Below are positions 1,794-52,089 of a stretch of DNA of 64,000 bases, piece after piece. The stretch is from NCBI GenBank assembly GCA_018970605.1, contig JAGWWA010000002.1, positions 272 to 64,271 on the forward strand, written 5' to 3'. Origin of the DNA: Planctomycetota bacterium. Its GTDB lineage: Bacteria > Planctomycetota > Planctomycetia > Pirellulales > UBA1268. A model generated the notes under the pieces. That model had not been told where the DNA came from. It ran no database searches and saw only the letters and a program-made list of their open reading frames with translations. Each line of letters begins with the position of its first letter. The stretch's first letter is position 1. Position numbers and translations under genes: made by a program.

Positions 1794-2160
1794 AAGCCCC
1801 GAGCGGCAGCGAGGGGATCCACGTCCGTCATGCCAGCCAGGAACGTCCCACTGCCACGCCCGTCCCACTGCCACGCCCGTCCCCTCGCTGGCGCTCGGGG
1901 CTTTTTGTTTCTGCCAATGCAACCAGCTCGGGGCTGCCCGTGCCCGGGAGCCGGCGTTGCTGACGAGCGAAGCCATGGATGGCGGAGCGAAGTCAGCATC
2001 GAGCGAGCGCAGGGCAGGATGCCCGTAGCGAGCGTCCGGCGACGGGCATGGGCAGCCCCGAGCGGCGGGGCGGAGTCGGCCGTGCCCCCATCGCTCACGC
2101 GATTGCGCTTCCTGAGTTCGGAGCGAGCGTCCGGCGGCGGGCATGGGCGGCCCCGAGCGG
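1794..2160 (+). repeat. Intergenic repeat mosaic 1: module E inverted pair (1794-1817/1880-1903) enclosing a 17-bp tandem duplication, module C (1926-2063), module A (2083-2116), partial C end (2126-2160)
   Basis: aagccccgagcggcagcgagggga pairs with tcccctcgctggcgctcggggctt. The unit cgtcccactgccacgcc occurs twice at 1844-1877. The C stem is gctcggggctgcccgtgccc/gggcatgggcagccccgagc. Confidence 0.9.
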
Positions 2161-2237
2161 CGCGCCACGGGAAGGCCGCGGCTCGTCAACTTTCACGTAC
2201 CGGCCGGGATCGGCTACCCTGTGAACCGGTGAACAGC

Positions 2238-3263
2238 ATGGAATCCTTCCGCCAGCCCAGCATTCAGGCTCCCGCCGCCGACGACGCCCCGCCGGAGGAC
2301 CGCGCGCTGCGGCCCCAGCGGATGGACGAGATGATCGGCCAACGAGCCGTGCACGAGCGGCTGATGATCGCCATCGATGCGGCGCGGAAGCGGGGCGAGA
2401 CGCTCGGCCACATCCTCCTCGACGGGCCGCCCGGCCTCGGCAAGACGACGTTCGCCACCTGCATCCCGCGGGAACTCGGCACCACCCTCCAGATCGCCAG
2501 CGGTGCCGCCCTCGCGGCGCCGAAGGATCTGCTGCCCTACCTCACCAATGCCGCCGAGGGCTCGGTGCTGTTCATCGACGAGATCCATCGGCTGCCGATC
2601 GCGGTGGAGGAGTTTCTGTATCCGGCGATGGAGGATTTTCGGATCGACATCACGCTCGGCGACGGCGTGGCGGCCCGGACGATCAACATGCCGCTGCGGC
2701 CGTTCACGCTGGTGGGAGCCACCACGCGGGCCGGCCTGATCTCGGCCCCGCTCCGCGACCGGTTCGTGATCCGCGAGCACCTCGACTACTACTCCGTCCC
2801 GGAACTCGCCGCGATCGTCCACCGCTCGGCCGGCAAACTCTCGATGCCGATGGACGATGAGACGGCCGACGAGATCGCCCACCGCAGCCGCGGCACTCCC
2901 CGGCTGGCCAACAACCGGCTGCGATGGATCCGCGACTTCTCCACGAGCAGGGCCGACAGCCAGATGAGCGTGGGGATCGCCCGCACGGCCCTGGAGATGC
3001 AGGGAATCGACGAACTCGGGCTCGATGGCTTCGACCGCAAGTATCTGGAGACGATCCAGCGTGTGTTCGCCGGCGGTCCGGTGGGGATCGAGGCCATCGC
3101 CCACACCATGAGCACCGCCTCCGACACGCTGGAGGATGACGTTGAGCCCTACCTGCTCCGCTGCGAACTGATCGTCCGCACGCCCCGGGGCCGGCGGCTC
3201 ACATCCAAGGGAGATGAACACCTCGGCGCCCCGCCGAAGGCCGGCCAGGGGAAGCTCTTTTGA
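2238..3263 (+). CDS. ruvB: Holliday junction DNA helicase RuvB
   Basis: LRPQRMDEMIGQ, Walker A GPPGLGKTT, LFIDEIHRL, GATTRAG and RGTPRLAN. The ORF-track extension back to 1830 runs through repeat DNA. Confidence 0.97.
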   Translation: MESFRQPSIQAPAADDAPPEDRALRPQRMDEMIGQRAVHERLMIAIDAARKRGETLGHILLDGPPGLGKTTFATCIPRELGTTLQIASGAALAAPKDLLPYLTNAAEGSVLFIDEIHRLPIAVEEFLYPAMEDFRIDITLGDGVAARTINMPLRPFTLVGATTRAGLISAPLRDRFVIREHLDYYSVPELAAIVHRSAGKLSMPMDDETADEIAHRSRGTPRLANNRLRWIRDFSTSRADSQMSVGIARTALEMQGIDELGLDGFDRKYLETIQRVFAGGPVGIEAIAHTMSTASDTLEDDVEPYLLRCELIVRTPRGRRLTSKGDEHLGAPPKAGQGKLF

Positions 3264-3282
3264 TGGGTTTTTCCGAGGCGGA

Positions 3283-3312
3283 TTGACCTTTCCCCGGCTT
3301 CGCGGCTACTCT
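3283..3312 (+). promoter_or_regulatory. Putative sigma70 promoter for the rpmF-fab operon
   Basis: TTGACC (3283-3288), 18-nt spacer, TACTCT (3307-3312), about 50 nt upstream of rpmF. Confidence 0.4.
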
Positions 3313-3360
3313 CTGGGGCTCTCGCGATCCCGTTCAGGCGATTCCAGTTCAGGTGATTCC

Positions 3361-3546
3361 ATGGCCGTCCCGAAGCGACGTCAGTCGAACCAGAAGACCC
3401 GCTCCCGCCGGGCCCACGATTTTCTCACGCCCCGCCAGTTGACGTTTTGCTCGACGTGCGGCAAGGCCGTGCCGACCCACCGGGTCTGCGGCACCTGCGG
3501 CTCCTACATGGGCAAGACGGTCATCAAGACCGGCGACGACGCCTGA
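3361..3546 (+). CDS. rpmF: 50S ribosomal protein L32
   Basis: MAVPKRRQS start with Zn-ribbon CSTC...HRVCGTCGSY. Confidence 0.95.
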   Translation: MAVPKRRQSNQKTRSRRAHDFLTPRQLTFCSTCGKAVPTHRVCGTCGSYMGKTVIKTGDDA

Positions 3547-3566
3547 CCCACTCCGTACCCCACCAG

Positions 3567-4511
3567 GTGACCCCCGTGGGCGACGCGACCAACGCCGGCG
3601 AGTCTGCCACGCCCGCGATCGTCTTTCCGGGTCAGGGTGCGCAGTCGGTCGGCATGGCCGGTGACTGGGTCGAGGCCTGCCCAAAGGCGGCTGAACTCTT
3701 CGCCCGCGCCTCGGCGATCCTCGGCTACGACCTGCTCGCCGTCTGCCGGAGCGGCCCCGCCGACCGGCTCAACACCACGGCCGTCAGCCAGCCGGCAATC
3801 CTCGTGACGAGCCTCGCCGCCCTCGAGGTGCTCCGCGGCCGCGAAGGCCACCCGCTCGACGCCGCACGGATCGCCGCCGGCCTCTCGCTCGGGGAATACA
3901 CCGCCCTGGTCTTTGCTGGAGCGGTCGGCTTCGACGACGCCGTGCGGCTCGTGGACGTTCGCGGTCGGGCGATGCAGGAGTGCGCCGAGCAGCGGCCCGG
4001 CGCGATGCTCGCCGTGCTCGGCGTCGACCGCGACAAACTCCTGGCCCTGTGCGACGAGTGCCGCGGAGGCGACGTGCTCGAGGTGGCGAACGTGCTCTGC
4101 CCCGGCAACATCGTCGCCTCCGGCTCGAAGGACGCCTGCGGACGGCTCGAGGCTGCCGCCATGGCCGCCGGGGCCATGAAGTGCGTGCCGCTCGAAGTGG
4201 CCGGCGCCTTCCACACCGCGCTCATGCAGCCTGCGGTCGAGCGGCTCACGGCCGCCCTGGCGGCGGCGGAGTTCCGGCCCCCGCGCATCCCCGTCGTCAG
4301 CAACGTCGATGCCAAGCCGCACACCGATCCGGCCGAAATCAAGGCCCTGCTGGCGCGGCAGGTCGTCGGTGTTGTCGAATGGAACGCTTCCATGGCATAC
4401 ATCCTCTCGACCGGGGTACGGTCGATCTGGGAAGTCGGTCCCGGACGCGTGCTCCGCGGACTGATGAAGCGGATCGACCGAAGCGTCGCCTGTGCGGGCG
4501 TGTTTGACTGA
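3567..4511 (+). CDS. fabD: Malonyl-CoA:ACP transacylase
   Basis: FPGQGAQ, SQPAI, GLSLGEY (catalytic Ser), GAFHT and EVGPGRVL. The GTG start is approximate. Confidence 0.93.
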   Translation: MTPVGDATNAGESATPAIVFPGQGAQSVGMAGDWVEACPKAAELFARASAILGYDLLAVCRSGPADRLNTTAVSQPAILVTSLAALEVLRGREGHPLDAARIAAGLSLGEYTALVFAGAVGFDDAVRLVDVRGRAMQECAEQRPGAMLAVLGVDRDKLLALCDECRGGDVLEVANVLCPGNIVASGSKDACGRLEAAAMAAGAMKCVPLEVAGAFHTALMQPAVERLTAALAAAEFRPPRIPVVSNVDAKPHTDPAEIKALLARQVVGVVEWNASMAYILSTGVRSIWEVGPGRVLRGLMKRIDRSVACAGVFD

Positions 4512-4570
4512 CCGAGCCCGGACGGCCGGCCACCTGTTGCTGTTTCCCGTGTTCCCAGGAGATTGAGGTC

Positions 4571-5353
4571 ATGGCTGACGAGTCTGCGCCGACGGGCCCC
4601 AAGCGGTTGAACGTGGACCTGAGCGGCCAGGTGGCCCTCGTCACCGGCGCCTCACAGGGCCTCGGGCGTGCCATCGCCGAAGCACTTGCCGCGGCCGGTG
4701 CCACCGTCGCCCTCGCCGCCCGCTCGGCCGACAAACTCTCCCAGGTGGCCGCGGGTATCCGCGCGGCGGGCGGCAAGGCCGAAGAGGTTCCCTGCGACGT
4801 TGCGAAGGCCGAAGAGGCCCAGCGCGTCGTCGAGGCCGTCGTGGAGAAGTGCGGCCGGCTCGACATCCTCGTCAACAATGCGGGCGTGACCCGCGACACG
4901 CTCCTCCCGCGGATGAGCGACGAGGAGTGGGACACCGTCCTCGACACGAATCTCCGCGGGCCGTTCCTGTTCATGCGGGCGGCCAGCCGGCCGATGATGC
5001 AGCAGCGGTATGGCCGGATCGTAAACGTGGCGAGCGTGTCGGGCCTGATCGGCAATCCCGGACAGGCCAACTACTCCGCGTCGAAGGCGGGGCTCGTGGG
5101 CCTCACCAAGACGGTCGCCAAGGAACTCGCCGGCCGGAAGATCACCGTGAATGCGGTGGCTCCCGGCTTCATCGCAAGCGACATGACGGCGGCCCTCGGC
5201 CCCGCACTGCTCGATGAGGTGAAGAAGCGGGTGCCGGCCAAGCGGCTCGGCGAGGCCTGGGAGATCGCGGAGGCGGTGCTGTTCCTGGCGGCGCCCTCGA
5301 GTGGCTACATCACGGCCCAAACCCTTGTCGTTGATGGCGGCATGATCGGCTGA
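4571..5353 (+). CDS. fabG: 3-oxoacyl-ACP reductase
   Basis: TGASQGLG, NNAGVTRD, GNPGQANYSASKAG (YxxxK) and VAPGFI. Confidence 0.96.
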   Translation: MADESAPTGPKRLNVDLSGQVALVTGASQGLGRAIAEALAAAGATVALAARSADKLSQVAAGIRAAGGKAEEVPCDVAKAEEAQRVVEAVVEKCGRLDILVNNAGVTRDTLLPRMSDEEWDTVLDTNLRGPFLFMRAASRPMMQQRYGRIVNVASVSGLIGNPGQANYSASKAGLVGLTKTVAKELAGRKITVNAVAPGFIASDMTAALGPALLDEVKKRVPAKRLGEAWEIAEAVLFLAAPSSGYITAQTLVVDGGMIG

Positions 5354-5405
5354 GATAGCGGATTCGAGGCAGGTCTCGAAGTCTGCTCCCGCTCCCGCCT
5401 CCGAA

Positions 5406-5601
5406 TGCCCCCATCGCTCACGCGATTGGGCTTCCTGAGGTCGATCGCAGGAAGCGTAACGCCGTCAGGCGTACGGCCGCCGCGCGCACGACGGAGCCGG
5501 CGCGAGGAGCCCTCATCGCTCACGCGATTGGGCTTCCTGAGGCCCGATCAGCGCACCACCGCCGGCACGCCCCCATCGCTGACGCGATTGGGCTTCCTGA
5601 G
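5406..5601 (+). repeat. Repeat mosaic 2: three module A copies (5406-5439, 5508-5541, 5568-5601) with a module B-like hairpin at about 5452-5477
   Basis: cccatcgc(tcac/tgac)gcgattgggcttcctgagg occurs three times. The hairpin acgcc-gtca-ggcgt lies in the first spacer. Confidence 0.92.
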
Positions 5602-5798
5602 GTCTGACCGGCACGGAGACGCCACGATCGCCCGGGTTTTCCCGGGCTGGACACTGGCGGTCGGGAACGGGTATATCTTCCCCGACAACCCAGGCAAGGT
5701 GCGCAGCCTCGGAGGGCTGCCGCCGATCCCGTCAGACCGCCCCGCCCCGCTCGCCGCCCAACCGCGGCCGGCAGCCGGGCTCCAGGAGGATTCACAAG

Positions 5799-6035
5799 GT
5801 GGCTTCAGTTCAAGAGCGTGTGATCGACATCGTGGCGTCGCAACTTGGCGTGAGCAAGGAACAGATCACGCCCGAGACGTCATTCATCAAGGATCTGGGT
5901 GCCGACTCGCTCGATACCGTCGAGCTGGTGATGGAACTCGAGGAAGAGTTCGAGATCAACATTCCGGACGATGCGGCCGAAAAGATTCAGACGGTCGGCC
6001 AGGCGGTGGAGTTCATCGAAAAGAACCAGTCGTGA
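5799..6035 (+). CDS. acpP: Acyl carrier protein
   Basis: [23 protein letters not shown] aggagg upstream of the GTG start. Confidence 0.97.
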
Positions 6036-6072
6036 TCGGCTGATCGCGAAGCACGGACGGCGGAGCGACGGT

Positions 6073-7311
6073 ATGAAGCGACGGGCGGTTGTAACCGGCG
6101 TGGGAGTCGTCACCTCCCTGGGCCGGAAGGTTGACGTGTTCTGGGATCGGATTGTGCGCGGCGAGAGCGGCGTCGGCCCGATCACCCTGTTCGACGTCTC
6201 AGGCTATCGCGTGCAGTTCGGCGGCCAGGTGCACTGGGAGCCGGAGAACGAGGACATCTCGTCCGCGAAGGACCTGAAGCGGCTCGATCGCTTCACGCAG
6301 TTCGCGATCGGTGCCGCCAAGGATGCGGCCACCGACTCCGGAATCGACTTCTCGAAGGAGGAGCCCTATCGCTGCGGCGTGGTGATCGGCTCCGGCATCG
6401 GCGGCCTCTGGGAGTTCGAGACCCAGGAGGAGCGGATGCTCCACAAGGGCATCGACAAGGTGTCGCCGTTCACCATCCCGAAGCTGATGGTCAACTCGGC
6501 CAGCGGCCACGTTTCCGCCCTCTACGGGGCCAAGGGACCCAACTTCGCGGTCGCCACGGCCTGTGCCAGCGCAGCCAACTCGATCGGCAGCGCGTTGCGG
6601 GCGATCCAATACGGCGACGCCGACGTGATGATCACCGGGGCGAGCGAGGCCGCGCTCACCCCGATCGGCCTCGCGGGCTTCCAGAACATGCGGGCCCTGT
6701 CTTTCCGCGGCGATGCGCCGCAGCAGGCGAGCCGGCCGTTCGACGTCGATCGCGACGGCTTCGTGCTCGCCGAGGGAGCCGGCGTCATCGTGGTCGAGGA
6801 ACTCGAGCACGCCCGCCGACGCGGCGCCCGGATCTACGCGGAGCTCAAGGGCTACGGTGCCAGCGGCGACGCCGGCCACATCACCCAGCCCGACGAGGAG
6901 GGCCGCGGTGGTGCGCACGCGATGATGCTGGCGTTGCAGGACGCGGGCATCGGTCCGGAGGCCGTCCAGTACATCAACGCCCACGGCACCAGCACGCCGC
7001 TCGGCGACGTGGCCGAGACGAAGGCCGTGAAGCGGGTGTTCGGCGGGCATGCCAAGCGGCTGGCGATCTCCAGCACCAAGAGCAATCTCGGCCACACGCT
7101 GGGGGCCAGCGGCGGCATCGAAGCCGTCATCTGCTCCCTGACGATCGACCGCGGTGTGATCACCCCCACGATCAACCTCGACACACCCGACCCCGAGTGC
7201 GATCTCGACTACGTGCCGAAGGTGGCCCGCGAGGCGAAGGTCGACGTCGCCATGAGCAACTCGTTCGGATTCGGCGGCCACAACGCGAGCCTGGTGTTCG
7301 CCCGCCTCTGA
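6073..7311 (+). CDS. fabF: Beta-ketoacyl-ACP synthase II
   Basis: Intact Cys-His-His triad (TACAS, NAHGTST, KSNLGH) and C-terminal SNSFGFGGHNA. Confidence 0.96.
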   Translation: MKRRAVVTGVGVVTSLGRKVDVFWDRIVRGESGVGPITLFDVSGYRVQFGGQVHWEPENEDISSAKDLKRLDRFTQFAIGAAKDAATDSGIDFSKEEPYRCGVVIGSGIGGLWEFETQEERMLHKGIDKVSPFTIPKLMVNSASGHVSALYGAKGPNFAVATACASAANSIGSALRAIQYGDADVMITGASEAALTPIGLAGFQNMRALSFRGDAPQQASRPFDVDRDGFVLAEGAGVIVVEELEHARRRGARIYAELKGYGASGDAGHITQPDEEGRGGAHAMMLALQDAGIGPEAVQYINAHGTSTPLGDVAETKAVKRVFGGHAKRLAISSTKSNLGHTLGASGGIEAVICSLTIDRGVITPTINLDTPDPECDLDYVPKVAREAKVDVAMSNSFGFGGHNASLVFARL

Positions 7312-7350
7312 GCGGAGCGCACCGGCTCCGGACCGCGGGAGGCATCGGAC

Positions 7351-8331
7351 ATGGATCGGTCGCCGCGCGGCATGCTGCTGGTGGGAGGCGCCCTTGTCGC
7401 GGGCTTGCTCCCGCTGCCGGCGATCGGGCAGATTCCGGCCACGGCCGGCCAGGTCTGGAAGACGTACGACATCGCGGCCTACGTCGCGCAAGCCGGCGAG
7501 GGAAGCCAGCGGCACGTGGTCGACTGGATCCTGCAGGACACCGGCTACCCTGCCTGGCACGGCGACACGCCGGCATCGCTCTCCGCCGACACCCAGACGC
7601 TCTCCTGCTTTCACGGACCCGAGATGCAGGCGAAGGTGGAGGAGATCGTGGCCAGATTCGTGGACGACGCGGCCACGCCGCACCGGTTCAGCGTCCGGGT
7701 GCTGGGACTCGACGGGCCCGGCTGGCGGGCCGAGGCCCGGCCCGCGCTCGTCGCCATCCCGGCTGCCACGCCGGGCGTGCAAGCCTGGATCGCCCCGCGC
7801 GAAACAGCCGCCGCCGTCCTCGCCCGGTTGCGGTCGCGATCCGACTGCCACGAACTGCCCACCGGCCCCGTGCTCGCCGCCAACGGCCTCCCCGCCACGC
7901 TCTCCGGAGGACGCAAGCAACCCTACGTTCAAGACATCGCCCCACGGCCCGACGTCTGGCCCGGCTGGCAGATGCAGTCGTCCACCTGCGACGAGGGACT
8001 CGCGATCGACATCCAGCCGCTGCTCACCCGCGACCGGACCGCAGTGGAGGCGGTCGTCCGCTGCCGGATCGACCAGCTCGAACGGCTGGCCCAGGTATCG
8101 CTGGCCTCTCCCGTGAACCAACAGCGGGTGCAGGTGGAGGTGCCACAGGTGGCGGCCGTGAGGGTGGGAGAGCGGTTCCGCTGGCCCGCCAACCAGACGC
8201 TGTTCATCGGGCTCGGGTTGGTGCCGTGGCCCGTGCCCGCGCAGAATGTGACGGCCGTGTCGCTGTTGACCGACGACAAGCGGTGCGACGTGGTGATCGT
8301 GGTCGAGCCCAGGCTCGGCGGCGGACCGTGA
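7351..8331 (+). CDS. Exported hypothetical protein, possibly secretin-like
   Basis: N-terminal hydrophobic signal. C-terminal segments GLAIDIQPLL, VPQV...PANQTLFIG and VVIVVEPR resemble secretin beta-barrel motifs by eye. Confidence 0.65.
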   Translation: MDRSPRGMLLVGGALVAGLLPLPAIGQIPATAGQVWKTYDIAAYVAQAGEGSQRHVVDWILQDTGYPAWHGDTPASLSADTQTLSCFHGPEMQAKVEEIVARFVDDAATPHRFSVRVLGLDGPGWRAEARPALVAIPAATPGVQAWIAPRETAAAVLARLRSRSDCHELPTGPVLAANGLPATLSGGRKQPYVQDIAPRPDVWPGWQMQSSTCDEGLAIDIQPLLTRDRTAVEAVVRCRIDQLERLAQVSLASPVNQQRVQVEVPQVAAVRVGERFRWPANQTLFIGLGLVPWPVPAQNVTAVSLLTDDKRCDVVIVVEPRLGGGP

Positions 8332-8387
8332 CCATGACCGACGACAGACCGAGGCCCGTCGGGGCCGGAACTCGACAGGATGCGTGC

Positions 8388-9707
8388 ATGAACGGAGCGG
8401 TGGAACGAAGGGTGGTGATCACGGGACTGGGAATCGTCTGCCCGCTCGGGCTCTCGCTCGACGAGTTTTGGACGGGGCTCGTCGAGGGCCGCAGCGGGAT
8501 CGGCCCGCTCGACGCCTTCGACAGCCGCGGCATCCCGCTCCATCATGCCGCCCAGGCCCGCGCATTCACCGGTGAGATCGACAACTTCGGCCCGCTCGAC
8601 GGCGAGAAGAAGAAGGCGATCCGCAAGGGCTGCAAGGTGATGTGCCGCGAGAGCCAGATGGCCGTGGCCGCGGCCCAGCGGGCCCTTCACGACTGCGGGG
8701 ACGCCGCCACACACCACCCGCCCGAGCGTTTTGGCTGCGTGTTCGGGTCCGACTACATGCTCACGATGCCGGAGGATTTCACATCGGGCGTCGCGGCGTG
8801 CCGGGCCGCCGACGGCGGATTCGACTTCCAGCGCTGGGGCACCGAAGGGATGGCGAAGATCACGCCGCTGTGGCTGCTGAAGTATCTTCCCAACATGCCG
8901 GCGAGCCACATCGCCATCTACAACGACCTGCGGGGGCCGAGCAACTCGCTGACGCTCCGCGAGGCCAGCGGCCACCTCGCCGTGGGCGAGGCCGCCGTCA
9001 CGATCAAGCGCGGCGCCGCCGACATCATGGTCGCGGGCGCGACCGGCACCCGCGTGCACCCGATGAAGACCGTCCATGCGATCCAGAGCGAGCAGGTGGC
9101 GATGGGCGACGACGATCCCGCCGCCTGGAGCCGCCCCTTCGACAAGCACCGTCGCGGGATGGTGCTCGGCGAGGGGGCTGCGGTGCTGGTGCTGGAGGAG
9201 TTGTCGCATGCCCGTGGCCGCGGCGCCACGATCTACGGCGAGGTCGTCGGCCATGCCGCGAGGTGCTCGACCGACCGGGCGGCGGTGGGCCGCCGACGGC
9301 ACTCCATCGCGCTGGCCATGGGCCGCGCGCTGGAGATGGCGGGCGTCGGCCCGGCCGACCTCGGGCACGTGCACGCGCATGGCGCGAGCACGGTGACCGG
9401 CGACCGCGAGGAGGCCGAGGGGATCCGCGACGTGCTGGGCGCGGCGGCCCGCACGGTGCCCACGGTGGCGGCCAAGAGCCACTTCGGCAACCTCGGCGGC
9501 GGCAGCGGCCTGGCGGAGTGCGTGGCGAGCATCCTGGCGCTCAGGCACGGGGAACTCTTCCCGCTCCTCAACCACCAGACCGACGACGAGGCCTGCGGCA
9601 TCCGGCCGGCGCGGCGGGGCGATCCTGCCGGCGAGGTCTTCGTCTCCACGTCCGTCACACCCCAGGGGCAGTCGGGGTCGGTGGTCATCCGATCGTGGCG
9701 GGCCTAG
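8388..9707 (+). CDS. FabF-like ketosynthase homolog lacking the catalytic Cys (Glu-His-Asn at the triad positions)
   Basis: RRVVITGLG, SRPFD and LGEGAAVLVLEEL give the KS fold. GPSNSLTLREAS aligns to GPNFAVATACAS of fabF, and KSHFGN to KSNLGH. Alternative start at 8334. Confidence 0.9.
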   Translation: MNGAVERRVVITGLGIVCPLGLSLDEFWTGLVEGRSGIGPLDAFDSRGIPLHHAAQARAFTGEIDNFGPLDGEKKKAIRKGCKVMCRESQMAVAAAQRALHDCGDAATHHPPERFGCVFGSDYMLTMPEDFTSGVAACRAADGGFDFQRWGTEGMAKITPLWLLKYLPNMPASHIAIYNDLRGPSNSLTLREASGHLAVGEAAVTIKRGAADIMVAGATGTRVHPMKTVHAIQSEQVAMGDDDPAAWSRPFDKHRRGMVLGEGAAVLVLEELSHARGRGATIYGEVVGHAARCSTDRAAVGRRRHSIALAMGRALEMAGVGPADLGHVHAHGASTVTGDREEAEGIRDVLGAAARTVPTVAAKSHFGNLGGGSGLAECVASILALRHGELFPLLNHQTDDEACGIRPARRGDPAGEVFVSTSVTPQGQSGSVVIRSWRA

Positions 9708-9733
9708 CGAGTCGCGGGCCAGACCGCCGCTCC

Positions 9734-9762
9734 TTGACAGACCCCCGCAAACGGCTTAATTT
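9734..9762 (+). promoter_or_regulatory. Putative sigma70 promoter of the nusA-infB-rbfA operon
   Basis: Consensus TTGACA (9734-9739), 17-nt spacer, TAATTT (9757-9762), in an AT-richer intergenic patch. Confidence 0.6.
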
Positions 9763-9917
9763 TCACGGGTTGCTCCTCGTGAGGATGGCTGCTGGTTCGC
9801 GGATACGCTTCCAAATGCCCGGCGCATGAACGCATGCGGGGTATTTCGGCGCCCATGTCGTGATATGGCGTCGGCCGTGCCGGCACCGCCATCTCACGGT
9901 TGGCATCCGAGAACCAC

Positions 9918-11219: not shown

Positions 11220-11276
11220 TGGTTGGAATCGGGCGTATGAAGGGGATCGGCGAGAGGCGTTGCGAGAGAGGGTCGA

Positions 11277-13907: not shown

Positions 13908-14308
13908 GCACCCGACGACTGTTGAAGGCGGCCGAGGCGGTTCGGGAGGTGGTCAGCATGGCCATCCTCACGGAGGTCCGCGACCCGCGGGTCAAGGACG
14001 TCACGGTGACCGGCGTCGAGATGGCTCCCGACATGCGGTCGGCGATCGTGCATGTTTCGATCATGGGTGGCCCGGCGAAGGAGAAGCTCGCGCTCCAGGG
14101 TCTCGCCCGATCGGCAGGCTTCCTGCAATCGCGGATCGCCGACCGGATCGAAACCCGCTACACGCCGAAGCTCCGCTTTGAACTCGACGGCGGCATCAAG
14201 AAATCGATCGAAATCGCCCGCATGCTCCACGAGGTCCTTCCGCCGACCCCGACGGACGACGACACCGAACCATCCTCCCCTTCCGTGGCCTCCCAGGACG
14301 ACGCATGA
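13904..14308 (+). CDS. rbfA: 30S ribosome-binding factor RbfA
   Basis: EVRDPRV, VTGVEMAPDMRSA and RYTPKLRF. Its GTG overlaps the infB stop (GTGA). Confidence 0.93.
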   Translation: MSTRRLLKAAEAVREVVSMAILTEVRDPRVKDVTVTGVEMAPDMRSAIVHVSIMGGPAKEKLALQGLARSAGFLQSRIADRIETRYTPKLRFELDGGIKKSIEIARMLHEVLPPTPTDDDTEPSSPSVASQDDA

Positions 14309-15660
14309 CCGCCCCGAAGAAGCCCGCCGGCAAAAAGCCGGCCCACGCCCCGAAGAAGCCCATCGCCAAAGCGGCCGCCAAGCCGGCCGCCAAACCAGGA
14401 TCAAAGCCCGCACCGACGAAGGCGTCCCCTCCCGTCAAGGCATCGGGCAAGTCGGCCCCGGCGAAGGCCGGGGGGCCGGCGAAGGCCGGGGGGCCGGCGA
14501 AGGCCGGGGGGCCGGCGAAGGCCGTGGGTCCCGCGAAGGCCGCGGCCGCCGCGAAACCCGTCGTACCCGCGAAGGTCGAACCACCGAAACTGCCGCCCGA
14601 GAAGGTGCCGCCGCGGGCCCAGTTGATTCCGAAACTTCACAAGGCGCTCAAAGCCGCCTACAAGCCGGTGCCGTTCGACACCGCCCGGCCGCTGCTCGAC
14701 CAGGTGCTCGTGGCCTGCTGCCTCGAGAACGCCCCCTACGACGTGGCCGAGAAGGCCTGTGCACGGCTGCGTGAGTCGGCCTTCGACCTCAACGAGATCC
14801 GCGTGACCACCGTCGCGGAACTCGCCGAGTTCCTCCACGACCTGCCCGACCCGGCCCATGCCGCCCTCTCGCTCCGCCGCGTGCTGCAGAGCGTGTTCGA
14901 ATCGACCTACAACTTCTCGCTCGACCACGCCAAGAAGCACTCCCTGGCCCACGGCCTCAAGGTGCTCGAGGGCATGCACGGCGTGCCGCCGTTCGTCGTG
15001 GCACACGTCGTCTCGACGGCGCTCGACGGACACATGATTCCGCTCGACAAGGGGGCGATCGCGGCGCTCTACGTGTGCGGGCTGACGACGCGGGCGGAGT
15101 ACGACTCCGGCAAGGTGCCCGGCCTGGAACGGATCATCGGCAAGAAGTCCGGGGTGGAGTTCAGTTCGCTGCTCCACCAGTTCGGCATCGAGGTGCTCAC
15201 CAACCTCCACGGCAACACCGTGCGGAAGGTGATGCAGGCGGTGAACCCGGCGGCCCTCAAGGACCGCATGCCGAAGCGGGGCGACCCGCTCCCGACCCCT
15301 ACACCACCGCCGCCCGCCACCGACAAGGAGAGCCTCAAGGCCGCCGAAGCCGCCCGAAACGCGGCCGAGGAGCACCGCCCGGCCGGCCCTCAGGCAGCGG
15401 CCCGCCCCGTGGGGAAGACGCCAATGCCCCCCGCCGGGTCGGGACCCAAGAAGCCGGGCGACGGCAAGTCGGGGCCGAAGCCGTTCGTGGTGAAGCCGAA
15501 CGTCGGCAAACCGCTGACGATCAAGCCGCAGATGGCTCCGCCGCCGGAGCCCGCGAAGCCGGCGCCGGCCGCCAAGAAGCCGACGAAGCCCGCCGCCAAG
15601 CAACCCGACGCGAAGGGAGACCGTCATTCGGCCGACCTGAGCAAGCGGAAGCCCCGGTGA
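14305..15660 (+). CDS. Hypothetical protein with Lys/Ala/Pro-rich (histone H1-like) termini and a degenerate endonuclease III/HhH-like core
   Basis: PAKA repeats at the N-terminus and a KKP-rich C-terminus. Core reads LLDQVLVACCLEN..DLNEIRVTTVAEL..GHMIPLD. ATGA overlap with rbfA. Confidence 0.7.
   Translation: MTAPKKPAGKKPAHAPKKPIAKAAAKPAAKPGSKPAPTKASPPVKASGKSAPAKAGGPAKAGGPAKAGGPAKAVGPAKAAAAAKPVVPAKVEPPKLPPEKVPPRAQLIPKLHKALKAAYKPVPFDTARPLLDQVLVACCLENAPYDVAEKACARLRESAFDLNEIRVTTVAELAEFLHDLPDPAHAALSLRRVLQSVFESTYNFSLDHAKKHSLAHGLKVLEGMHGVPPFVVAHVVSTALDGHMIPLDKGAIAALYVCGLTTRAEYDSGKVPGLERIIGKKSGVEFSSLLHQFGIEVLTNLHGNTVRKVMQAVNPAALKDRMPKRGDPLPTPTPPPPATDKESLKAAEAARNAAEEHRPAGPQAAARPVGKTPMPPAGSGPKKPGDGKSGPKPFVVKPNVGKPLTIKPQMAPPPEPAKPAPAAKKPTKPAAKQPDAKGDRHSADLSKRKPR
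14458..14541 (+). repeat. In-frame 18-bp tandem repeat encoding PAKAGG
   Basis: ccggcgaaggccgggggg three times, followed by degenerate copies. Confidence 0.85.
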
Positions 15661-15703
15661 CGGAAGGCCGACGACAGCAGCGCATCGCGAGGGAGAAACA
15701 CGC

Positions 15704-16453: not shown

Positions 16454-16467
16454 GGGCCACGTATTTC

Positions 16468-16535
16468 GTAGAACGGGTTTCCAACCTGTTTTTGAATCGT
16501 TCGCCGATTCGGCACAGATTGAAAACGTGTGCTAC
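16468..16535. repeat. Module D: GTAG-tagged REP doublet (REPIN-like) between convergent genes
   Basis: GTAG-aacgggtt-tcc-aacctgtt ... gcacagatt-gaa-aacgtgtg-CTAC, with an inner gaatcg/cgattc hairpin. Confidence 0.75.
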
Positions 16536-18124: not shown

Positions 18125-18131
18125 GGATGGC

Positions 18132-19446: not shown

Positions 19447-19669
19447 GGCACACAGGTTGAAAACCTGCGCTACGAGAGGCAGCGAGGGGCTGCCCGTGCC
19501 CGGGAGCAGGCGTTGCTGACAAGCGCAGCCAGGATGGCGGAGCGCAGTCAGCATCGAGCGAGCGAAGGGCCGGAGCCCGCAGCGAGCGTCCGGCGACGGG
19601 CATGGGCAGTCCCGAGCTATGCGGCGGTGCCAGCAGGCCCCCATCGCTTCCGCGATTGGGCTTCCTGAG
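19447..19669 (+). repeat. Repeat mosaic 3: D (19447-19473), C (19481-19617), A (19637-19669)
   Basis: cacaggttgaaaacctgcgctac, a full C module, then cccatcgcttccgcgattgggcttcctgag. Confidence 0.9.
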
Positions 19670-22305: not shown

Positions 22306-22582
22306 TGCCCCATCGCTTCCGCGAGTGGGCTTCCTGGATGCGTCACGAGTGGTGAGCGAGGGGCTGTCCATGCCCGGGAGCCGGGCTGTGGGAGCAAGCG
22401 AACCCAGGATGGCGAAGCGCAGCGGACACGCAGAGAGCCGAGGCCTGGAGGGCCGAGGCGAACGTCCGGCGACGGGCGTGGGCAGCCCCGAGCGGCACGG
22501 CGACCATGCCCCCATCGCTTCCGCGATTGGGCTTCCTGATTCTCGGCATGCCCCCATCGCTTACGCGATTGGGCTTCCTGAG
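22306..22582 (+). repeat. Repeat mosaic 4: A (22306-22337), C (22355-22493), A, A (22507-22539, 22549-22582)
   Basis: Direct sequence comparison. The last two A copies have a 42-bp period. Confidence 0.9.
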
Positions 22583-27621: not shown

Positions 27622-27918
27622 GGCACACAGGTTGACAACCGATGCGACCAGCGGCGAGCGAGGGGCTGCCCGTGCCCGGGAGCCGGCGTTGCTGACGAGC
27701 GGAGCCATGGATGGCGGAGCGATGTCAGCATCGAGCGAGTGAAGGCCAGGAAGGCCGCAGCGAGCGTCCGGCGACGGGCATGGGCAGCCCTGAGCGGGAG
27801 GTGTCCGAGGCAGGCACACGGGTAGACAACCGATGCGACCAGCGGCGCACCGCCAGCACGACCGGGGCCGCGATGTGGTTCCACCCGCTATCCCCTCGCT
27901 GGCGCTCGGGGCTTCCTG
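27622..27918 (+). repeat. Repeat mosaic 5: 35-bp direct repeats (D variant, 27622-27656 and 27813-27847) flanking C (27657-27795), plus an E half (27891-27918)
   Basis: ggcacac(a/g)ggt(t/a)gacaaccgatgcgaccagcggcg occurs twice, and tcccctcgctggcgctcggggcttcctg follows. Confidence 0.9.
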
Positions 27919-31605: not shown

Positions 31606-31998
31606 GACGGGGCATACGCGGCCCCGAGCGGTGCGGAGCCAGCATGCCCCCATCGCTTACGCGATTGGGCTTCCTGAGTCCCGGCATGCCCCCATCGCTC
31701 ACGCGATTGGGCTTCCTGACCAGGAAGCGAGGGGATGCCCGTGCCCTCGAGCGGGCTGTGGGAGCAAGCGAAGCCACGATGGCGAAGCGCAGCGGACACG
31801 CAGTGAGCCGAGGCCGGGAGGGCCGAGGCGAACGTCCAGCGAGACGGCATGGGCGGCCCCGAGCGGTGCGGAGCCAGCATGCCCCCATCGCTTACGCGAT
31901 TGGGCTTCCTGAGTCCCGGCGTGCCCCCATCGCTTACGCGATTGGGCTTCCTGAGTCCCGGCGTGCCCCCATCGCTTACGCGATTTGGCTTCCTGATG
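31606..31998 (+). repeat. Repeat mosaic 6: partial C end, A, A (31645, 31687), C (31726-31864), A, A, A (31880, 31922, 31964)
   Basis: Five A copies with a 42-bp period and linker tcccggc(a/g). The lead-in gccccgagcggtgcggagccagca is duplicated. Confidence 0.93.
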
Positions 31999-40443: not shown

Positions 40444-40541
40444 TCATGCCGCCAACAGCCCTTCCTGCGGCGGCGGGGGCGCGGGTACGCTGATCGTTGG
40501 ATTGGAGTCGATCCAGGCCAGATCTTTTCGAGGAGATGATC

Positions 40542-41381: not shown

Positions 41382-41417
41382 CGCCGCGCGGTTCGCCGCA
41401 CCAAGGGCCTTCTCCGC

Positions 41418-41861: not shown

Positions 41862-41873
41862 TCGGAGCCTGAC

Positions 41874-42350: not shown

Positions 42351-42510
42351 CAGGCTCATCCACGTGTTGTGTGGACAGCCGGTAACTTGCGGGCTGGAAA
42401 AGTTCATAACCCGATCGTGCCTGCCCTCGACCGGGCTATTGAAGCAATCGCAGCCACGACCAATCCGCCTGCGGCGGATCGGTGCCCGGCGAAGTGCAGG
42501 CAGCATCGTG

Positions 42511-42671
42511 TGAGCGAAACCCAGGATGGCCGCAGCGAACGTCCGGCGACAAGGCACGGGCGGACTCTCGCTCGCCCTCAGTAGCACAGGTTGTCAACCT
42601 GTGCCGAGATCACGGCTGAAGCGCTCCACGCCGCGATGCGCCACATGTGCAGGTTGACAACCTGCACCTAC
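42511..42671. repeat. Partial module C (42511-42578) and GTAG-tagged REP doublet D (42581-42671)
   Basis: GTAGcacaggttgtcaacctgtgc ... gtgcaggttgacaacctgcacCTAC. Confidence 0.85.
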
Positions 42672-43630: not shown

Positions 43631-43682
43631 GTACGCCGGCGGCAACCTCCACGCCCACCCCAGGGCTCACGGCCTCCTGATC

Positions 43683-43812
43683 CGTCCAAGCCCAACGCCG
43701 TGAGGCGTGGGGCGAACCGCCACCGGACGCGGCGTTCAGCGTGGTATGCCCGCGGCCTTCCGGCTGGTCGGCTTCCACACGCACCATCCAAGCCCAACGC
43801 CGCGAGGCCGTG
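43683..43812 (+). repeat. Module B repeat (full copy plus a second hairpin)
   Basis: ccaagcccaacgcc-gtga-ggcgtggggcgaaccgccacc..., with a second ccaagcccaacgccgcgaggc at about 43788. Matches 55830-55896 (-) and 60229-60300 (+). Confidence 0.8.
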
Positions 43813-43847
43813 TCCGGCGCGGATGCGGGCTTGGCGCCGCAGCCCGC

Positions 43848-47546
<3,699 letters not shown>

Positions 47547-47765
47547 CGACGATCCGGGTCTGGAAAGAGGGTAGAACGGCGGAAACTCTGCCGATTGACG
47601 GCATCGCCGCATCATAGGCGACCCGGGGAACAGGGCATACTGCACCGCCTGGAGGACGCGATTGGCTCGCCCCGATGGTGCTGGCTGGGCAGGGGCCATC
47701 CCGCTCGCCACCGGCGGTTCAAGGCGTGAGTCCGCCCACGACGATGCTGCGGCGAGAGGACGTCC

Positions 47766-48089
47766 ATGAAGGTGCTTGCCCGCATTCCCGCGCTCGACGC
47801 CGCGGCGATCACGATCGCCGGCGACACCGAGGCGCCCGCCGGCGAGCGCGGAGATTCGCCCGGAGCCGCTCCAGGGCCGCAGCTGGCCACGGTGGAGTTG
47901 CGGCCGCGGGTCCGCACGCGGCGCCCACGAAGCCGGTTTCCCTCGGTCTCGGTCGCCGCCCTGGCCCTCCTGGCCGCCGTGGCCTGGTCGCTCGCGTCGT
48001 GGAACGACGCCCACCGCGCAGAGCGGAGCCGCGTGGAGCGGCTCGCGCGGATGCAGCCTGTCGCGGCGCCGGAGACGATCTCCCGATGA
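47766..48089 (+). CDS. Small single-TM hypothetical protein
   Basis: RBS gagga, one hydrophobic helix, ATGA overlap with the next gene. Confidence 0.6.
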
Positions 48090-48697
48090 CGCTGGACTTT
48101 CTCGACGCCGCCTTCGTCGATCGTTGGCAGACGTCGCTGGCTCCCGCCGTCGGCGCCCCGCCCGACATTGCGCGGGCCGAGTCACCGGTCGTCATCCCGA
48201 CAACCCCGCCGGAAATCGCGACGGCCGACCCGCCGGCAGCCGCCGATTTCGTGGGGCGACTGATGGCTGCGGCTCGAGCGGAATGGGAAGCCCTCGCCGA
48301 CGAGGCGATCGCCGCCCGCGGCCGGGGCCGCCGCGCGATCGCGATCGTGGCGTGCGAGCGTGCCGCCGGCTGCTCGACGCTCTGCACCGGTCTCGTCCGC
48401 GCGCTCCGCGATCGAGGCCGGGATGCGGTCGGGGTCGCGGCGGTCGCCATCCCGTCCGCGGACACGCCGCACGACAAACGGATCGTGATCGTCGATGGGG
48501 GCGTCTGGTTTCCACCGGGACGGATCAATCGGCAGCGGCTGCTCGTGGTGTCGAGCGGATGCGATGCGGCGATTCTCGTCGTCCGCTCCGGATCCCGTCC
48601 GCCCGCCTGCTGGTCCACCTGCCTGGAGGCGATCGGCGTGGAACCGCTCGGCGAGGTCGTCTCGTTCGTTCCCACCTCCACCGGACCCCTGCCATGA
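48086..48697 (+). CDS. Hypothetical protein with a degenerate ParA/CpsD-like P-loop
   Basis: [23 protein letters not shown] and [13 protein letters not shown] overlaps at both ends. Confidence 0.6.
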
Positions 48698-49359
48698 CGC
48701 CCGCCCTCCGACCGACATCGTCCGTCACACCGTCGCAGCAGGCTGCAGCCGCCAAGATCGCCGCGGCGATCGACCGGCCCGGAGGCGTGGCGCTCCTCTG
48801 CGGACCGCAGGGCGTGGGCAAGACCACCGTGCTGGCGGCGGTGGCCGCGGGCGAGCAGCGCCGCGGCCGCACCGTGGAATGCCGCGACCTCCTCGACTGG
48901 CTCCGGTCAGCCGCGCCGTGGCCGGGTGACCTGCCCGACGTCGTCGTCGCTGACGCCGCCCATCGGGCCGCCGATGGCGACCTCGCGAGGATGCTGGCTG
49001 CCTGCCGGCACCGCGCCTCGCCGGCCTGTCTCGTCCTCGCCGGCGAGGGACGTCTGCTCACCCTCGTCTCCCGCGACACGGCCGTCGAGCGGGCCATCCA
49101 TCTGCGGGCGAGCCTGCGGCCTCTCTCGCCTGACGAGTCGAGCCTGATCGTCGTGCCCATGCTCACGGCTGCGGGCATCAACGCCACCACCGCCGAGGGA
49201 CTCGTGGACGTGATCCATGAGATCGGCGGAGGCATCCCGGCCGCGATGCTCAGGCTCGCCGACCTGGCCACTGTCGTGGCCACCTCGCGTCCTGACCGAT
49301 CGCTCGACCACCGCGACATCGAAGCGATCCACCGCCGGCTCTCGCCGCTCGCAGCATGA
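48694..49359 (+). CDS. ExeA/GspA-like AAA ATPase (degenerate)
   Basis: Walker A GPQGVGKT, Walker B-like VVVADAAH, LVLAG, LRPLSPDE and GGIP. Confidence 0.7.
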   Translation: MTPALRPTSSVTPSQQAAAAKIAAAIDRPGGVALLCGPQGVGKTTVLAAVAAGEQRRGRTVECRDLLDWLRSAAPWPGDLPDVVVADAAHRAADGDLARMLAACRHRASPACLVLAGEGRLLTLVSRDTAVERAIHLRASLRPLSPDESSLIVVPMLTAAGINATTAEGLVDVIHEIGGGIPAAMLRLADLATVVATSRPDRSLDHRDIEAIHRRLSPLAA

Positions 49360-49483
49360 CGCCCCTCATGCGCGTCGCAGTTGATCGTGAGGCGTTCACG
49401 AGGCTCAGGGCTATCCGTGCCCGTCGCGGCCCCTCGCTGCGGGCTCCGGCCCTCCGATACGCGAGGATCAAGTGCAACATCCC

Positions 49484-50683
49484 TCAGTGCTCGGCGCAGG
49501 CCTCAGCGCGGGCGCGGGCCAGCAGGGCGGAGACGGAGTCTTTGGTCGGCGGCCGGGCAGACCGGTCTGGCGCGAACGCGTCCACCTCGATCGTAGGCCG
49601 ACGGCCTTCCACGAGATCGGCGATCAGCACGGCCGTGCCCGTCGACTGGTGGAGCCCGGCCCGGAAGTGGCCGGCCGCGACGAACGCGTTGCCGCAGGCC
49701 GGGGCGCGGCCGATCGTGGGCAGGCCATCGGCCGTGCCGGGCCGCAGCCCGGCCCACGATCGCTCCGGTGCCGAGCCGCCGAGATCGCCGAGCAGGTCTC
49801 GGGCGAACGCCACGAGCCGGGCGATCGTCGCCTCGTCGGTCGAGGCGTCGAACCCGGCGTCCTCGAGCGTGGATCCGGCCAGCAGGGTGCCATCCTCGCG
49901 GGGCACGAGATAGTCGAGCCCGCGATTGACCACCCGCACGAGCCGCGGCTCCGTCATCCGAAGCTGCACGATCTGGCCGCGAATCGGCCGCGTCTCGATC
50001 GACACGCCGAGCGACTCTGCCAGCGCCCCCGACCACGCCCCGGCCGCGAGGACGTACGCCCCGGCGCGCATCGTCTCGGACCTTCCCGCCACGTCGGCCA
50101 CCACCCGCTCCACGCGGCCCTCGCGGACCAGGATCTCGCGCACGGTCACGCCGTGGCTGATGGTCACCCCGCGCCGTTCGCACGACCGCTCGAGCGCGTC
50201 GAGATGCCGCGGCGGCCGGATCTGCGTCTCGTCGGCCAGCCCGTAGCCGCCCAGCACGGCCGACTGCCGGACGCCCGGGGCGAGCGCCGGCTCACAGGCC
50301 GTCACGTCCGCGGCATCGAGCCAGTCGCACGCCACGCCCCGCGCCCGCCATGCTGCCGCGTCAGCCTGAAGCCGAGATCGGCCCGCATCATCCCGGTAGA
50401 CGTGCAGACCGCCGCAGACCCGAAGACCCGTATCGATGCCGGTCTCCTCGAGAAGCTCCCGCGCCCAGTCGCGATGGAGCCGATCGCTCCAGGCGGTGAG
50501 CCGCTCGATGGGCGTTGCATCGGCACGCTCCGGCGCCGGCGGAAAGATGCCGGCCGCGGCCCAGGAGGCGGTGTCGCGCCACGGTTCGCGGACGAGCACC
50601 CGGACCGCATGTCCGCGGCCCGCGAGTTCGCGGGCGATCGACAGGCCGACAATGCCGCCACCGATGATGCAACAGTCGGTCAT
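49484..50683 (-). CDS. thiO: Glycine oxidase ThiO / FAD-dependent D-amino acid oxidase family
   Basis: GGGIVG, ASWAAAG, RPIRGQI, WAGLRP and GHFRAG. Confidence 0.82.
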   Translation of the reverse strand: MTDCCIIGGGIVGLSIARELAGRGHAVRVLVREPWRDTASWAAAGIFPPAPERADATPIERLTAWSDRLHRDWARELLEETGIDTGLRVCGGLHVYRDDAGRSRLQADAAAWRARGVACDWLDAADVTACEPALAPGVRQSAVLGGYGLADETQIRPPRHLDALERSCERRGVTISHGVTVREILVREGRVERVVADVAGRSETMRAGAYVLAAGAWSGALAESLGVSIETRPIRGQIVQLRMTEPRLVRVVNRGLDYLVPREDGTLLAGSTLEDAGFDASTDEATIARLVAFARDLLGDLGGSAPERSWAGLRPGTADGLPTIGRAPACGNAFVAAGHFRAGLHQSTGTAVLIADLVEGRRPTIEVDAFAPDRSARPPTKDSVSALLARARAEACAEH

Positions 50684-50699
50684 GCTGGGAGGTGGGGTG

Positions 50700-51686
50700 T
50701 CAGGCGTTGGTGGGAACGGCGGGGCTGTCGGCGATGTTCACCCACACGTGGACGTGGGGCGAACCGCGGAAGTGCCAGACGAAGGCGGGACCCTCCAGCC
50801 GCCAGTTGTCCCACACGCCGTCGTTGCCAATGTCGTCGTCGCGGTAGAAGGCGAGGCGGCAGCGGTCGAGGCCGCCCTGGGCGGTGAGGCAGCCGCGCAC
50901 CTCGTCGCGATCGACGGTGCGGTAGGGCTCGAGCAACACGCCGAGCACGCGTTCGAGCTCCGCCCGCTGGTCGGGCGAAAGTTCCGATACGGGCATGCCG
51001 AGTGGCTCCTGGCCGCTGCGGCGGAAGGCGATCGCGTTTTCAGGCGGCGTCTTCGCCACCATCGCCAGATCCCGCTGGCGTCCGTCGAGCATCGCGAACA
51101 CCCCGTTCGCGGCGACGGCTTGCGGCCAGAAGACGTTGCCCTCGTGATCCTTCGCCTCCGTGCCGCCGCCGGTGTCGTGGCCGTAGAAGATCGGGCCGCC
51201 GAAGGCGACGTGCTCGGCAGAATCACCATCGCAGCGGAGAGTCATGTGTCGGCCGGTGAGCAGGAACTGAAACGTCCCGCTGCCAGGTTCGCCGATGAGC
51301 GCGACCGACTGGCCGTGCCCGAAGCCACCGGTGTCGTCCTCGAGCTGGCGGTCGAAGCGGGCATGCCAGTCGGGGTGGATCAGCCGCTCGAAGATCTCGC
51401 GAACGAGCTGCTGCTGCTCCTTCGAGAAGAAGTCTCCCTTCACCGCGGGTGTGGTGGCGTTCCAGTTGTTGCCCACCCTCGTCCGCAGGAGCCCGAATCT
51501 CGGATGGACGTAGTCCCAGGGAACACAGATCTTCGATCGCTGGTCGGGCGAGAGCGAAGCATGCAGCCGGCCGGCGACCGTCTCGGCCGAATCCGTGGTC
51601 GTGTGTTCCGCTGCCGAAACGAACGGATTGCGAAGAAGCGCAGCGGCAGCCGAGGTTCGCAGCAGGTCTCGTCGCGACAGTCGCAT
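50700..51686 (-). CDS. Tat-exported DUF3500 family protein
   Basis: SRRDLL Tat motif, LLTGRHMT, FGGPIFYG and WRLEGPAFVWHFRGSPHVH. Confidence 0.75.
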   Translation of the reverse strand: MRLSRRDLLRTSAAAALLRNPFVSAAEHTTTDSAETVAGRLHASLSPDQRSKICVPWDYVHPRFGLLRTRVGNNWNATTPAVKGDFFSKEQQQLVREIFERLIHPDWHARFDRQLEDDTGGFGHGQSVALIGEPGSGTFQFLLTGRHMTLRCDGDSAEHVAFGGPIFYGHDTGGGTEAKDHEGNVFWPQAVAANGVFAMLDGRQRDLAMVAKTPPENAIAFRRSGQEPLGMPVSELSPDQRAELERVLGVLLEPYRTVDRDEVRGCLTAQGGLDRCRLAFYRDDDIGNDGVWDNWRLEGPAFVWHFRGSPHVHVWVNIADSPAVPTNA

Positions 51687-51798
51687 CGTCGAGTTCGCCC
51701 CATGGGCCGACACGATTCCAGGCGATTCAGCCTACGACACCCGCACGATGCGTGCCACACGGCTGCGAGCCGCGGGATGATCCTTCGAACGACCGTCA

Positions 51799-52089
51799 TC
51801 CCCTCGCTGCCGCTCGGGGCTTTCTGGAGGCAGCCAAGGATCGAGAGAGACGGAGCCGGCGTGCCCCCATCGCTCACGCGATTGGGCTTCCTGAACGGCG
51901 AGCGAGGGGCTGCCCATGCCCGGGAGCCGGCGTTGCTGACCAGCGCAGCCAGGATGGCGAAGCGCAGGCAGCATCGAGTGAGCGGAGGGCAGGATGCCCG
52001 TAGCGAACGTCCGGCGACGGAGCGTGGGCAGCACCGAGCGGCGTGGCGAAGTCAACGTGCCCCCATCGCTCACGCGATTGGGCTTCCTG
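51799..52089 (+). repeat. Repeat mosaic 7: E half (51799-51826), A (51862-51894), C (51901-52039), A (52058-52089)
   Basis: Direct sequence comparison with the other loci. Confidence 0.9.

Follow-up and report, generated by a model that had tools for sequence, protein, structure and literature searches.

GAAG-tagged intergenic hairpins paired with an inverted sister hairpin and associated with a predicted class 3 Y1 transposase in a Pirellulales bacterium

Repeat A at the locus

The stretch of DNA considered here, referred to as the window, comprises 64,000 nucleotides of contig JAGWWA010000002.1 (assembly GCA_018970605.1, positions 272 to 64,271 of the forward strand) from a Planctomycetota bacterium of the order Pirellulales. 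It carries 15 copies of a short hairpin, designated repeat A, which an original prediction made from the letters of the window had taken for a repetitive extragenic palindrome (REP) family with a GAAG tag in place of GTAG. The analysis bears this out, as the family has a purine foot other than GTAG and a tie to a Y1 transposase. Repeat A is very probably an intergenic hairpin that stands opposite a sister hairpin, C, in arrays resembling bacterial interspersed mosaic elements (BIMEs), flanks the gene of a class 3 Y1 transposase of the HUH (histidine-hydrophobic-histidine) type, and is the likely single-stranded DNA (ssDNA) target of that enzyme. Its copy number, intergenic location, strict inversion relative to C, stem covariation, and the flanked gene with its class are the observed parts of this explanation.

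All 15 predicted copies are present in a single orientation, starting within 1–2 nt of their predicted positions, and their minus-strand loops agree with those predicted (GTGA in 6, GTAA in 5, GGAA in 3, and GTCA in 1). They form 6 clusters, and the probability that these share an orientation by chance is p = 0.03. The window is atypical in that it holds one C copy only. Of its 6 A clusters, 5 adjoin a repeat of ~140 nt, designated G. The copies of A and C are as follows.

2085..2114, minus strand: REP A, loop GTGA, one stem mismatch
5408..5437, minus strand: REP A, loop GTGA
5448..5475, plus strand: partner REP C, foot CAGGAAG, stem CGTAACGCC/GGCGTACG, loop GTCA, inverted relative to A
5510..5539, minus strand: REP A, loop GTGA
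5570..5599, minus strand: REP A, loop GTCA
19638..19667, minus strand: REP A, loop GGAA
22307..22336, minus strand: REP A, loop GGAA
22509..22538, minus strand: REP A, loop GGAA
22551..22580, minus strand: REP A, loop GTAA, 42-nt tandem unit
31647..31676, minus strand: REP A, loop GTAA
31689..31718, minus strand: REP A, loop GTGA
31882..31911, minus strand: REP A, loop GTAA
31924..31953, minus strand: REP A, loop GTAA
31966..31995, minus strand: REP A, loop GTAA, one stem mismatch
51864..51893, minus strand: REP A, loop GTGA
52060..52089, minus strand: REP A, loop GTGA

Copy number, foot, and loop across the genome

Copies were sought in the whole assembly of the window's genome (2.86 Mb in 164 contigs, 76% complete) with the loop left free and a base-shuffled genome as control. 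This search identified 183 copies of repeat A at three or fewer mismatches, while the shuffled genome gave 0 at five or fewer. The loops were not random: 174 of the 183 were GNNA (GTGA 77, GTAA 65, GTCA 15, GGAA 13, others 4), 158 of the 183 were GNRA, and the variation is narrow because 142 were either GTGA or GTAA. The first G and last A, invariant in the window as originally claimed, are not so genome-wide, with the G altered in 5/183 copies and the A in 4/183. Nor is the minus strand more than a local feature, since the genome's contigs gave 56 forward and 103 reverse matches. The consensus arms were matched exactly by 122 of 197 copies, and the hairpin fold is supported by z-scores of -2.6 to -3.3. 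REPs in general are intergenic palindromes of 20–50 nt and high copy number, a description that A fits.

In A, conservation begins at CAGGAAG, spans the stem, and extends as far as GGGGGC; it ceases within 2 nt past the stem, and a fixed terminal tetranucleotide is lacking. Each position of GAAG, the unpaired tetranucleotide 5′ of the stem, is kept in 169–182 of the 183 copies. The predicted conservation of the tag is therefore strong, with the amendment that the conserved unpaired 5′ part is CAGGAAG, which is longer than GAAG. The GT[AG]G foot of canonical REPs (subclasses 2.2, 2.4, 2.5, 2.7, and 2.8) is not that of family A, in which GTAG occupies the foot position in 1/177 copies. Among the genomes searched, A is restricted to its genus, being present in 10/36 genomes of the same genus and 0/24 of other families.

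Inverted pairing with C and the sister families

Sister families whose foot and loop are of the A type were found in the genome, namely B (303 copies), C (127), D (68), and E (41). GNNA occurs in 697/725 of their loops, and 121 of these 697 have C or T as the third base, which bears out across families the argument that the loop obeys a GNNA rather than a GNRA rule. Neighboring A copies point in the same direction in 35/35 cases, and neighboring A and C copies are opposed in 111/111. The A–C opposition was also seen in the stretches fetched from relatives (G030, 22/22; G004, 47/47; G034, 7/7; G026, 70/70), while 2/12 A–A pairs of G026 were opposed. Clusters of A without C number 67/116, and D–E neighbors are likewise opposed in 19/19. 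Stem changes between relatives are compensated (CCCA/TGGG, CCGCA/TGCGG, and CCTCA/TGAGG), and the versions of A in G088 and G034 have one additional, compensated base pair.

Several side observations concern these and other hairpin families. Family B, with loop centers in the window at 1806, 1890, 27901, 51809, 60362, and 60430, has tandem G.A mismatches in its stem and GGGA, GCCA, GCGA, GGAA, or GGCA loops, and its pairs are inverted in 156/161 cases. Families D and E, with foot CAAG/AAAG, have loop centers at 43701, 43759, 55879, and 60245; this assembly yielded no D/E transposase, and genes flanked by D are present in G004, G010, G067, and G086. Family F is a canonical GTAG REP of 116 copies with TTC/TCC rather than GNNA loops (window centers 16521, 19459, and 42593). 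It resembles the subclass 2.7 rows seen in Table S1 of PMC6006769; a matching transposase was not found, and a search of the window's genome with NF047646 gave no match.

Position relative to genes

Genes were called with a self-trained gene model, and the copy set used for gene context comprised 186 A copies, of which 177 had GNNA loops. All but one of them (185/186) lie outside predicted genes, and A is enriched in convergent gaps (44/93 versus 227/1326; p 1e-10). This enrichment, like the 158 GNRA loops, would suit an A hairpin that acts mainly as RNA, as a GNRA-capped terminator or an mRNA stabilizer at gene ends. Such a role is nevertheless very unlikely, as the tagged strand in co-directional gaps is sense in 20 cases and antisense in 25 (p = 0.55), no U-run follows the A stem, an Rfam scan of the window gave no match, and the 121 sister-family loops cited above are GNNA without being GNRA. 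A secondary RNA-level effect of the hairpin may exist. No relation was found between A orientation and the local majority gene strand (50 versus 43), and adjacent A clusters on one contig showed no orientation concordance (23 versus 19).

The associated Y1 transposase

The original prediction called for a cognate REP-associated tyrosine transposase (RAYT), and the search for one uncovered a 3′ fragment of a Y1 transposase gene adjoining A and C, together with complete genes in four relatives. The one complete Y1 gene in the window's genome (Pfam Y1_Tnp; C85:804-1295, locus L001) is of class 3 and has family B flanks. A second, detected by tblastn, is truncated where contig C149 begins, leaving 43 C-terminal residues that include the motif YVRECQ and end in YVRECQDSSRYE; its stop codon is followed by 3 nt and then by A, C, and A. 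Y1 homologs were found in 27/68 genomes of the genus, and complete genes with A- and C-type flanks occur in G030, which supplied the query, and in its three best non-self matches, G026, G088, and G034. The A/C-flanked transposases form one clade (97/92; 0/500 shuffles), and the C149 fragment is nearest to the G030 protein (25/38 residues). Metagenome contigs matching the C-terminal pattern, which represent approximately three distinct sequences, all contain a complete gene that is preceded by C and followed by A (6/6), and the nearest of these genes are identical to the C149 fragment at 85–96 of 135 nt.

The transposase motifs are QHVH, WTRGGS, and YVRECQ, and Y160, V161, and Q165 are invariant in 27/27 aligned sequences. 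An AlphaFold model of the G030 protein (predicted local distance difference test, pLDDT, 81) best matched the ISDra2, E. coli TnpA_REP (4er8), and IS608 transposases (E 1.4e-4 to 3e-4), while an alignment-based sequence search of the Protein Data Bank (PDB) gave a weak IS200 match only (E 0.069). The Y---NP motif of canonical GTAG REP transposases was considered and rejected, as Y---Q is present instead. Two features of individual loci were also recorded: at L172 and L175–L177 the transposase frame enters an inverted A copy and stops at a TGA derived from the complement of the tag, and at L194 (G224) a class 3 gene has one in-frame TAA near its start, yet four flanking REPs.

Class 3 was described as 14 proteins, mainly from Planctomycetes, Acidobacteria, and Proteobacteria, with a Y---Q motif (Quentin et al., 2018; PMC6006769). 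Atypical hairpins bearing a CnGA foot flank its genes, and the class was considered a possible intermediate between IS200 and REP transposases (PMC6006769). The 18 class 3 rows of Table S1 include the feet CCGAG, CAGAG, and CACGAG and the loops GTAA, GTGA, GTCA, and GTTA, although two or three of the rows were folded differently by its authors (PMC6006769). When the listed planctomycete class 3 REP was sought in 401 genomes of the class, 22 matched, and a homolog of the transposase alignment was present in 5/5 carriers tested. Similarity to published class 3 was gauged through a gene flanked by exact Table S1 REPs (profile E 2.5e-38); its product has the motifs NHVH, WT, and YVINEQ and shares 35% identity with the G030 protein across 153 aa (E 5e-28). 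On these sequence grounds, the shared motifs and the 35% identity place the A/C-linked transposase in class 3.

The Y---Q motif of class 3 proteins is IS200-like, and the top fold matches include ISDra2 and IS608. GAAG-like guides also precede the right-end hairpins of IS605 elements. These features would fit hairpins that are the ends of non-autonomous IS200/IS605-type insertion sequences (ISs), which an IS transposase would mobilize and whose guide sequence would be GAAG. That origin is the least probable of those weighed here, given that conservation stops within 2 nt of the A stem without a fixed terminal tetranucleotide, that, in contrast to IS ends, A and its partner C occupy opposite strands, and that there is one gene per repeat family rather than a multicopy gene. 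In addition, a TnpB domain (PF07282) was not found in the 76%-complete genome, and the C85 paralog scored 28 bits against the IS200 NCBIfam cut-off of 55.

A shared foot and loop beside class 3 genes

The search for repeated hairpins extended up to 450 nt from each of 29 genus loci and from 31 of 46 further loci; the other 15 either duplicated genus loci or were partial or weak matches and were left out. Orientation was set by the foot and not by the loop, and related loci are not independent. A foot ending in AG was present in 57 of 91 repeated hairpin groups, at 27/29 genus loci and 10/31 distant loci (GAAG 26, CAAG 20, AAAG 14, TAAG 3, CTAG 2, CGAG 2, ACAG 1, and CCAG 1). Among the 35 distinct AG-footed stems, 32 had GNNA loops only; all 32 start with C, and 30 close with C-G. 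Of the other three, one is a GCGA loop in a shifted register, one has CTTG, and one has TGCG. The common signal beside class 3 genes is thus an NNAG foot, a C-first stem, and a GNNA cap. Within this foot GAAG is a single variant: it holds as the tag in family A, while across related families only AG is common. The new element here, as a sharper consensus, is the NNAG foot common to 35 distinct flanking stems, 32 of which have GNNA loops.

GNNA is a stable class of DNA tetraloop with a sheared G.A pair (PMC10085684). The mini-hairpin GCGNNAGC is contained in 170/186 A, 229/236 B, and 27/30 C2 copies, and C1, D, and E carry CC-GNNA-GG in its place. A 2002 article by Nakano, by its title, reportedly treats d(cGNNAg) and d(gCNNGc) as stable DNA tetraloop classes. 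The one clear loop exception, G-CTTG-C at L033 (G068), fits the second of these. GCGNNAGC forms a hairpin that is far more stable in DNA than in RNA and is a poor substrate for single-stranded DNA-binding protein (SSB; PMC13037366). This d(cGNNAg) mini-hairpin is a structural motif and not a genetic element, unlike REP A.

Descent, site comparison, and the relic alternative

A genome 91.6% identical to that of the window, G004, allowed 42 comparisons of orthologous A sites (21 per direction, overlapping). Repeat A was mostly common to both genomes, with changed unit numbers; it was missing in 3/42 comparisons, which include one clean 130-bp indel and one site with family B instead. The predominance of shared sites that differ in unit number only could reflect an A that is the inert descendant of a REPtron, with a loop spectrum inherited from two or three founders and arrays that vary by slippage or recombination only. 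The 142 GTGA or GTAA loops, the variable microhomology at tandem unit borders (1–43 nt), and the incompleteness of the cognate gene in its own assembly also favor this. Descent within A cannot, however, account for GNNA on 32 of 35 unrelated stems, and the exact consensus arms of 122/197 copies, the intact genes in relatives, and the three comparisons lacking A, one with another REP family at the site, likewise argue against an inert relic, which we consider unlikely.

Proposed mechanism

Under the preferred explanation, in which A is the ssDNA target of the class 3 enzyme, the tagged strand would fold into the GAAG foot, 4 bp, a bulged A, 4 bp, and a C(GNNA)G cap. By analogy with E. coli TnpA_REP, the enzyme would bind this folded strand only, as ssDNA, with the tag serving as its putative guide. 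For CT cleavage by a Marinomonas TnpA_REP, strong selection within GTAG was confined to A3 and G4 (Corneloup et al., 2021; PMC8266576). By the same A3G4 rule, the AG of the GAAG foot in family A is predicted to direct the nick to CT in nearby DNA. Nicking and strand transfer would then spread A/C units, and slippage may add local tandem expansion.

Several findings weigh against this explanation. The genome's own cognate gene is a fragment in an incomplete assembly, in which neither its HUH motif nor its intactness is visible, and the gene was not found in G004, whose orthologous contig begins inside the array. The loop G and A of family A deviate as often as stem bases, and family A alone therefore shows no loop selection. 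Only 10/31 distant homologs had an AG-footed repeat in the script search, and 34/91 hairpin groups lacked an AG foot, 5 of them being AG-footed hairpins read one pair longer. CT starts 3/15 tandem A units and ends 0/15, and a CT junction is not obvious at the only clean empty site (130 bp, C131 versus G004).

Should the explanation be correct, the A/C family would offer a clean enzyme–substrate pair for class 3, as judged from sequence, with direct predictions of strand specificity, CT cleavage, and reliance on the sheared G.A cap.

Replication polarity and repeat G

The A/C pair is asymmetric, and its orientation relative to replication can therefore be counted, unlike that of symmetric REPINs (REP doublets forming hairpins). 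The G/T-rich strand is presumably the leading strand, which is also the lagging-strand template; it was deduced from codon-position skew rather than from an origin, and genes on the plus and minus strands agreed in this skew (r 0.73, 55/64 contigs). In the window's genome the tagged strand of A lies on the G/T-rich strand in 83/116 clusters (p 4e-6) and on 48/63 contigs, with or without C or G nearby, and the window's contig agrees (Z -6.3). Families B and F showed no replication-strand bias in this genome, nor did its genes (49.8%). The relatives were surveyed only in part, through 50, 40, 20, and 20 stretches that surround A copies and are at most 20 kb long. The A bias was not significant in the independent relatives (G030, 46/76; G034, 15/23; G026, 19/42; pooled 80/141, p 0.13), and in G004 it was 33/51, but most of these sites are common to the window's genome. 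No earlier report of REP strand bias was found in the literature searched.

Repeat G, present 141–145 times in the genome, has inverted arms at its termini and contains GGA triloops and tandem GA steps. Its copies in the window are as follows.

1930..2064, plus strand: repeat G, ~140 nt, beside A, opposite the A tagged strand
19478..19617, plus strand: repeat G, beside A
22351..22494, plus strand: repeat G, between two A copies
27653-27796, plus strand: repeat G
31723..31865, plus strand: repeat G, between A copies
51897..52040, plus strand: repeat G, between two A copies
60547-60679, plus strand: repeat G

It lies opposite the tagged strand of A in 56/56 cases in the window's genome, and this orientation is fixed in five genomes (56/56, 28/28, 21/21, 6/6, and 3/3). 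A transposase of its own was not identified. Repeat G has a replication-strand bias in 94/133 clusters and in 45/67 from three independent relatives (p 0.007). Its structured-looking strand is the other one, and differential loss is therefore as plausible as fork-directed insertion. These data leave as a speculative proposal that class 3 arrays are polarized ssDNA mobile units, coded by an AG foot and a C-closed, SSB-resistant GNNA mini-hairpin and laid down at the replication fork. If true, the arrays would be genomic evidence for REP spread at the fork by a class proposed to bridge IS200 transposases and domesticated RAYTs.

Two further observations lie apart from these systems. A repeat of ~165 nt, with about 30 copies on the genome's contigs, starts with CTAGAGCGCGTCTGAG and by eye is unrelated to the hairpin families. 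An open reading frame of the window (14305-15660, plus strand) contains Ala/Lys/Pro-rich 18-nt tandem repeats (14440-14565) of histone-like low complexity.

Comparison with known systems

Family A is a known kind of bacterial repeat, ordinary as a repeat family, with an unlisted GAAG tag. It is not among the 18 class 3 rows of Table S1 of PMC6006769, and a GAAG-tagged family of this kind was not found in print in the literature searched. The string "gaag" is absent from the main text of PMC3733652, and "planctomyc" was not found in the portion of bioRxiv 10.1101/119735 covered; the figures and supplements of both may bear on family A. The comparison with published catalogs called for by the original prediction thus has two sides: GAAG is absent from the Table S1 rows covered, while non-GTAG feet with GTNA loops are already in print for class 3 REPs. 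No biochemical study of class 3 Y1 proteins was found in the literature searched.

The layout of E. coli BIME-2, in which two REP types (y/z2) in inverse orientation are tandemly repeated (PMC3333891), is close to that of the A/C arrays. Both systems have an imperfect hairpin with an unpaired 5′ foot, an intergenic location, inverse REP types in tandem, and a single repeat-flanked gene. Unlike the E. coli REPs of subclass 2.2, family A lacks GTAG, has a stem of the shorter, 8-bp type, and has a conserved GNNA loop, whereas the E. coli REP loop has a non-specific role only (PMC8266576). The enzyme also differs from E. coli TnpA_REP, with Y---Q in place of Y---NP, and the C85 paralog scored 24 bits against a cut-off of 80 on NF047646. 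With IS200/IS605 elements (IS608 and ISDra2) the A system shares the Y1 HUH fold, a hairpin with a 5′ guide tetranucleotide, and a possible preference for the lagging-strand template; it differs from them in lacking IS architecture and fixed ends, in its single-copy gene, and in its repeats being dispersed without the gene.

The closest resemblance is to class 3. The transposases share HVH, W[TS]/W[TA], and YV..[E]Q or YV[VI]xEQ (Y---Q) motifs with Q at Y+5, although positions 3–5 differ. The REPs share a planctomycete host, a bulged stem, GTNA loops, a foot ending in AG, and hundreds of genomic copies. Between the A foot, CAGGAAG/NAAG, and the published CnGA(G), only the final AG is common, and whereas the class 3 loci fetched have near-identical inverted copies, the A/C system consists of two different hairpins that are strictly inverted.

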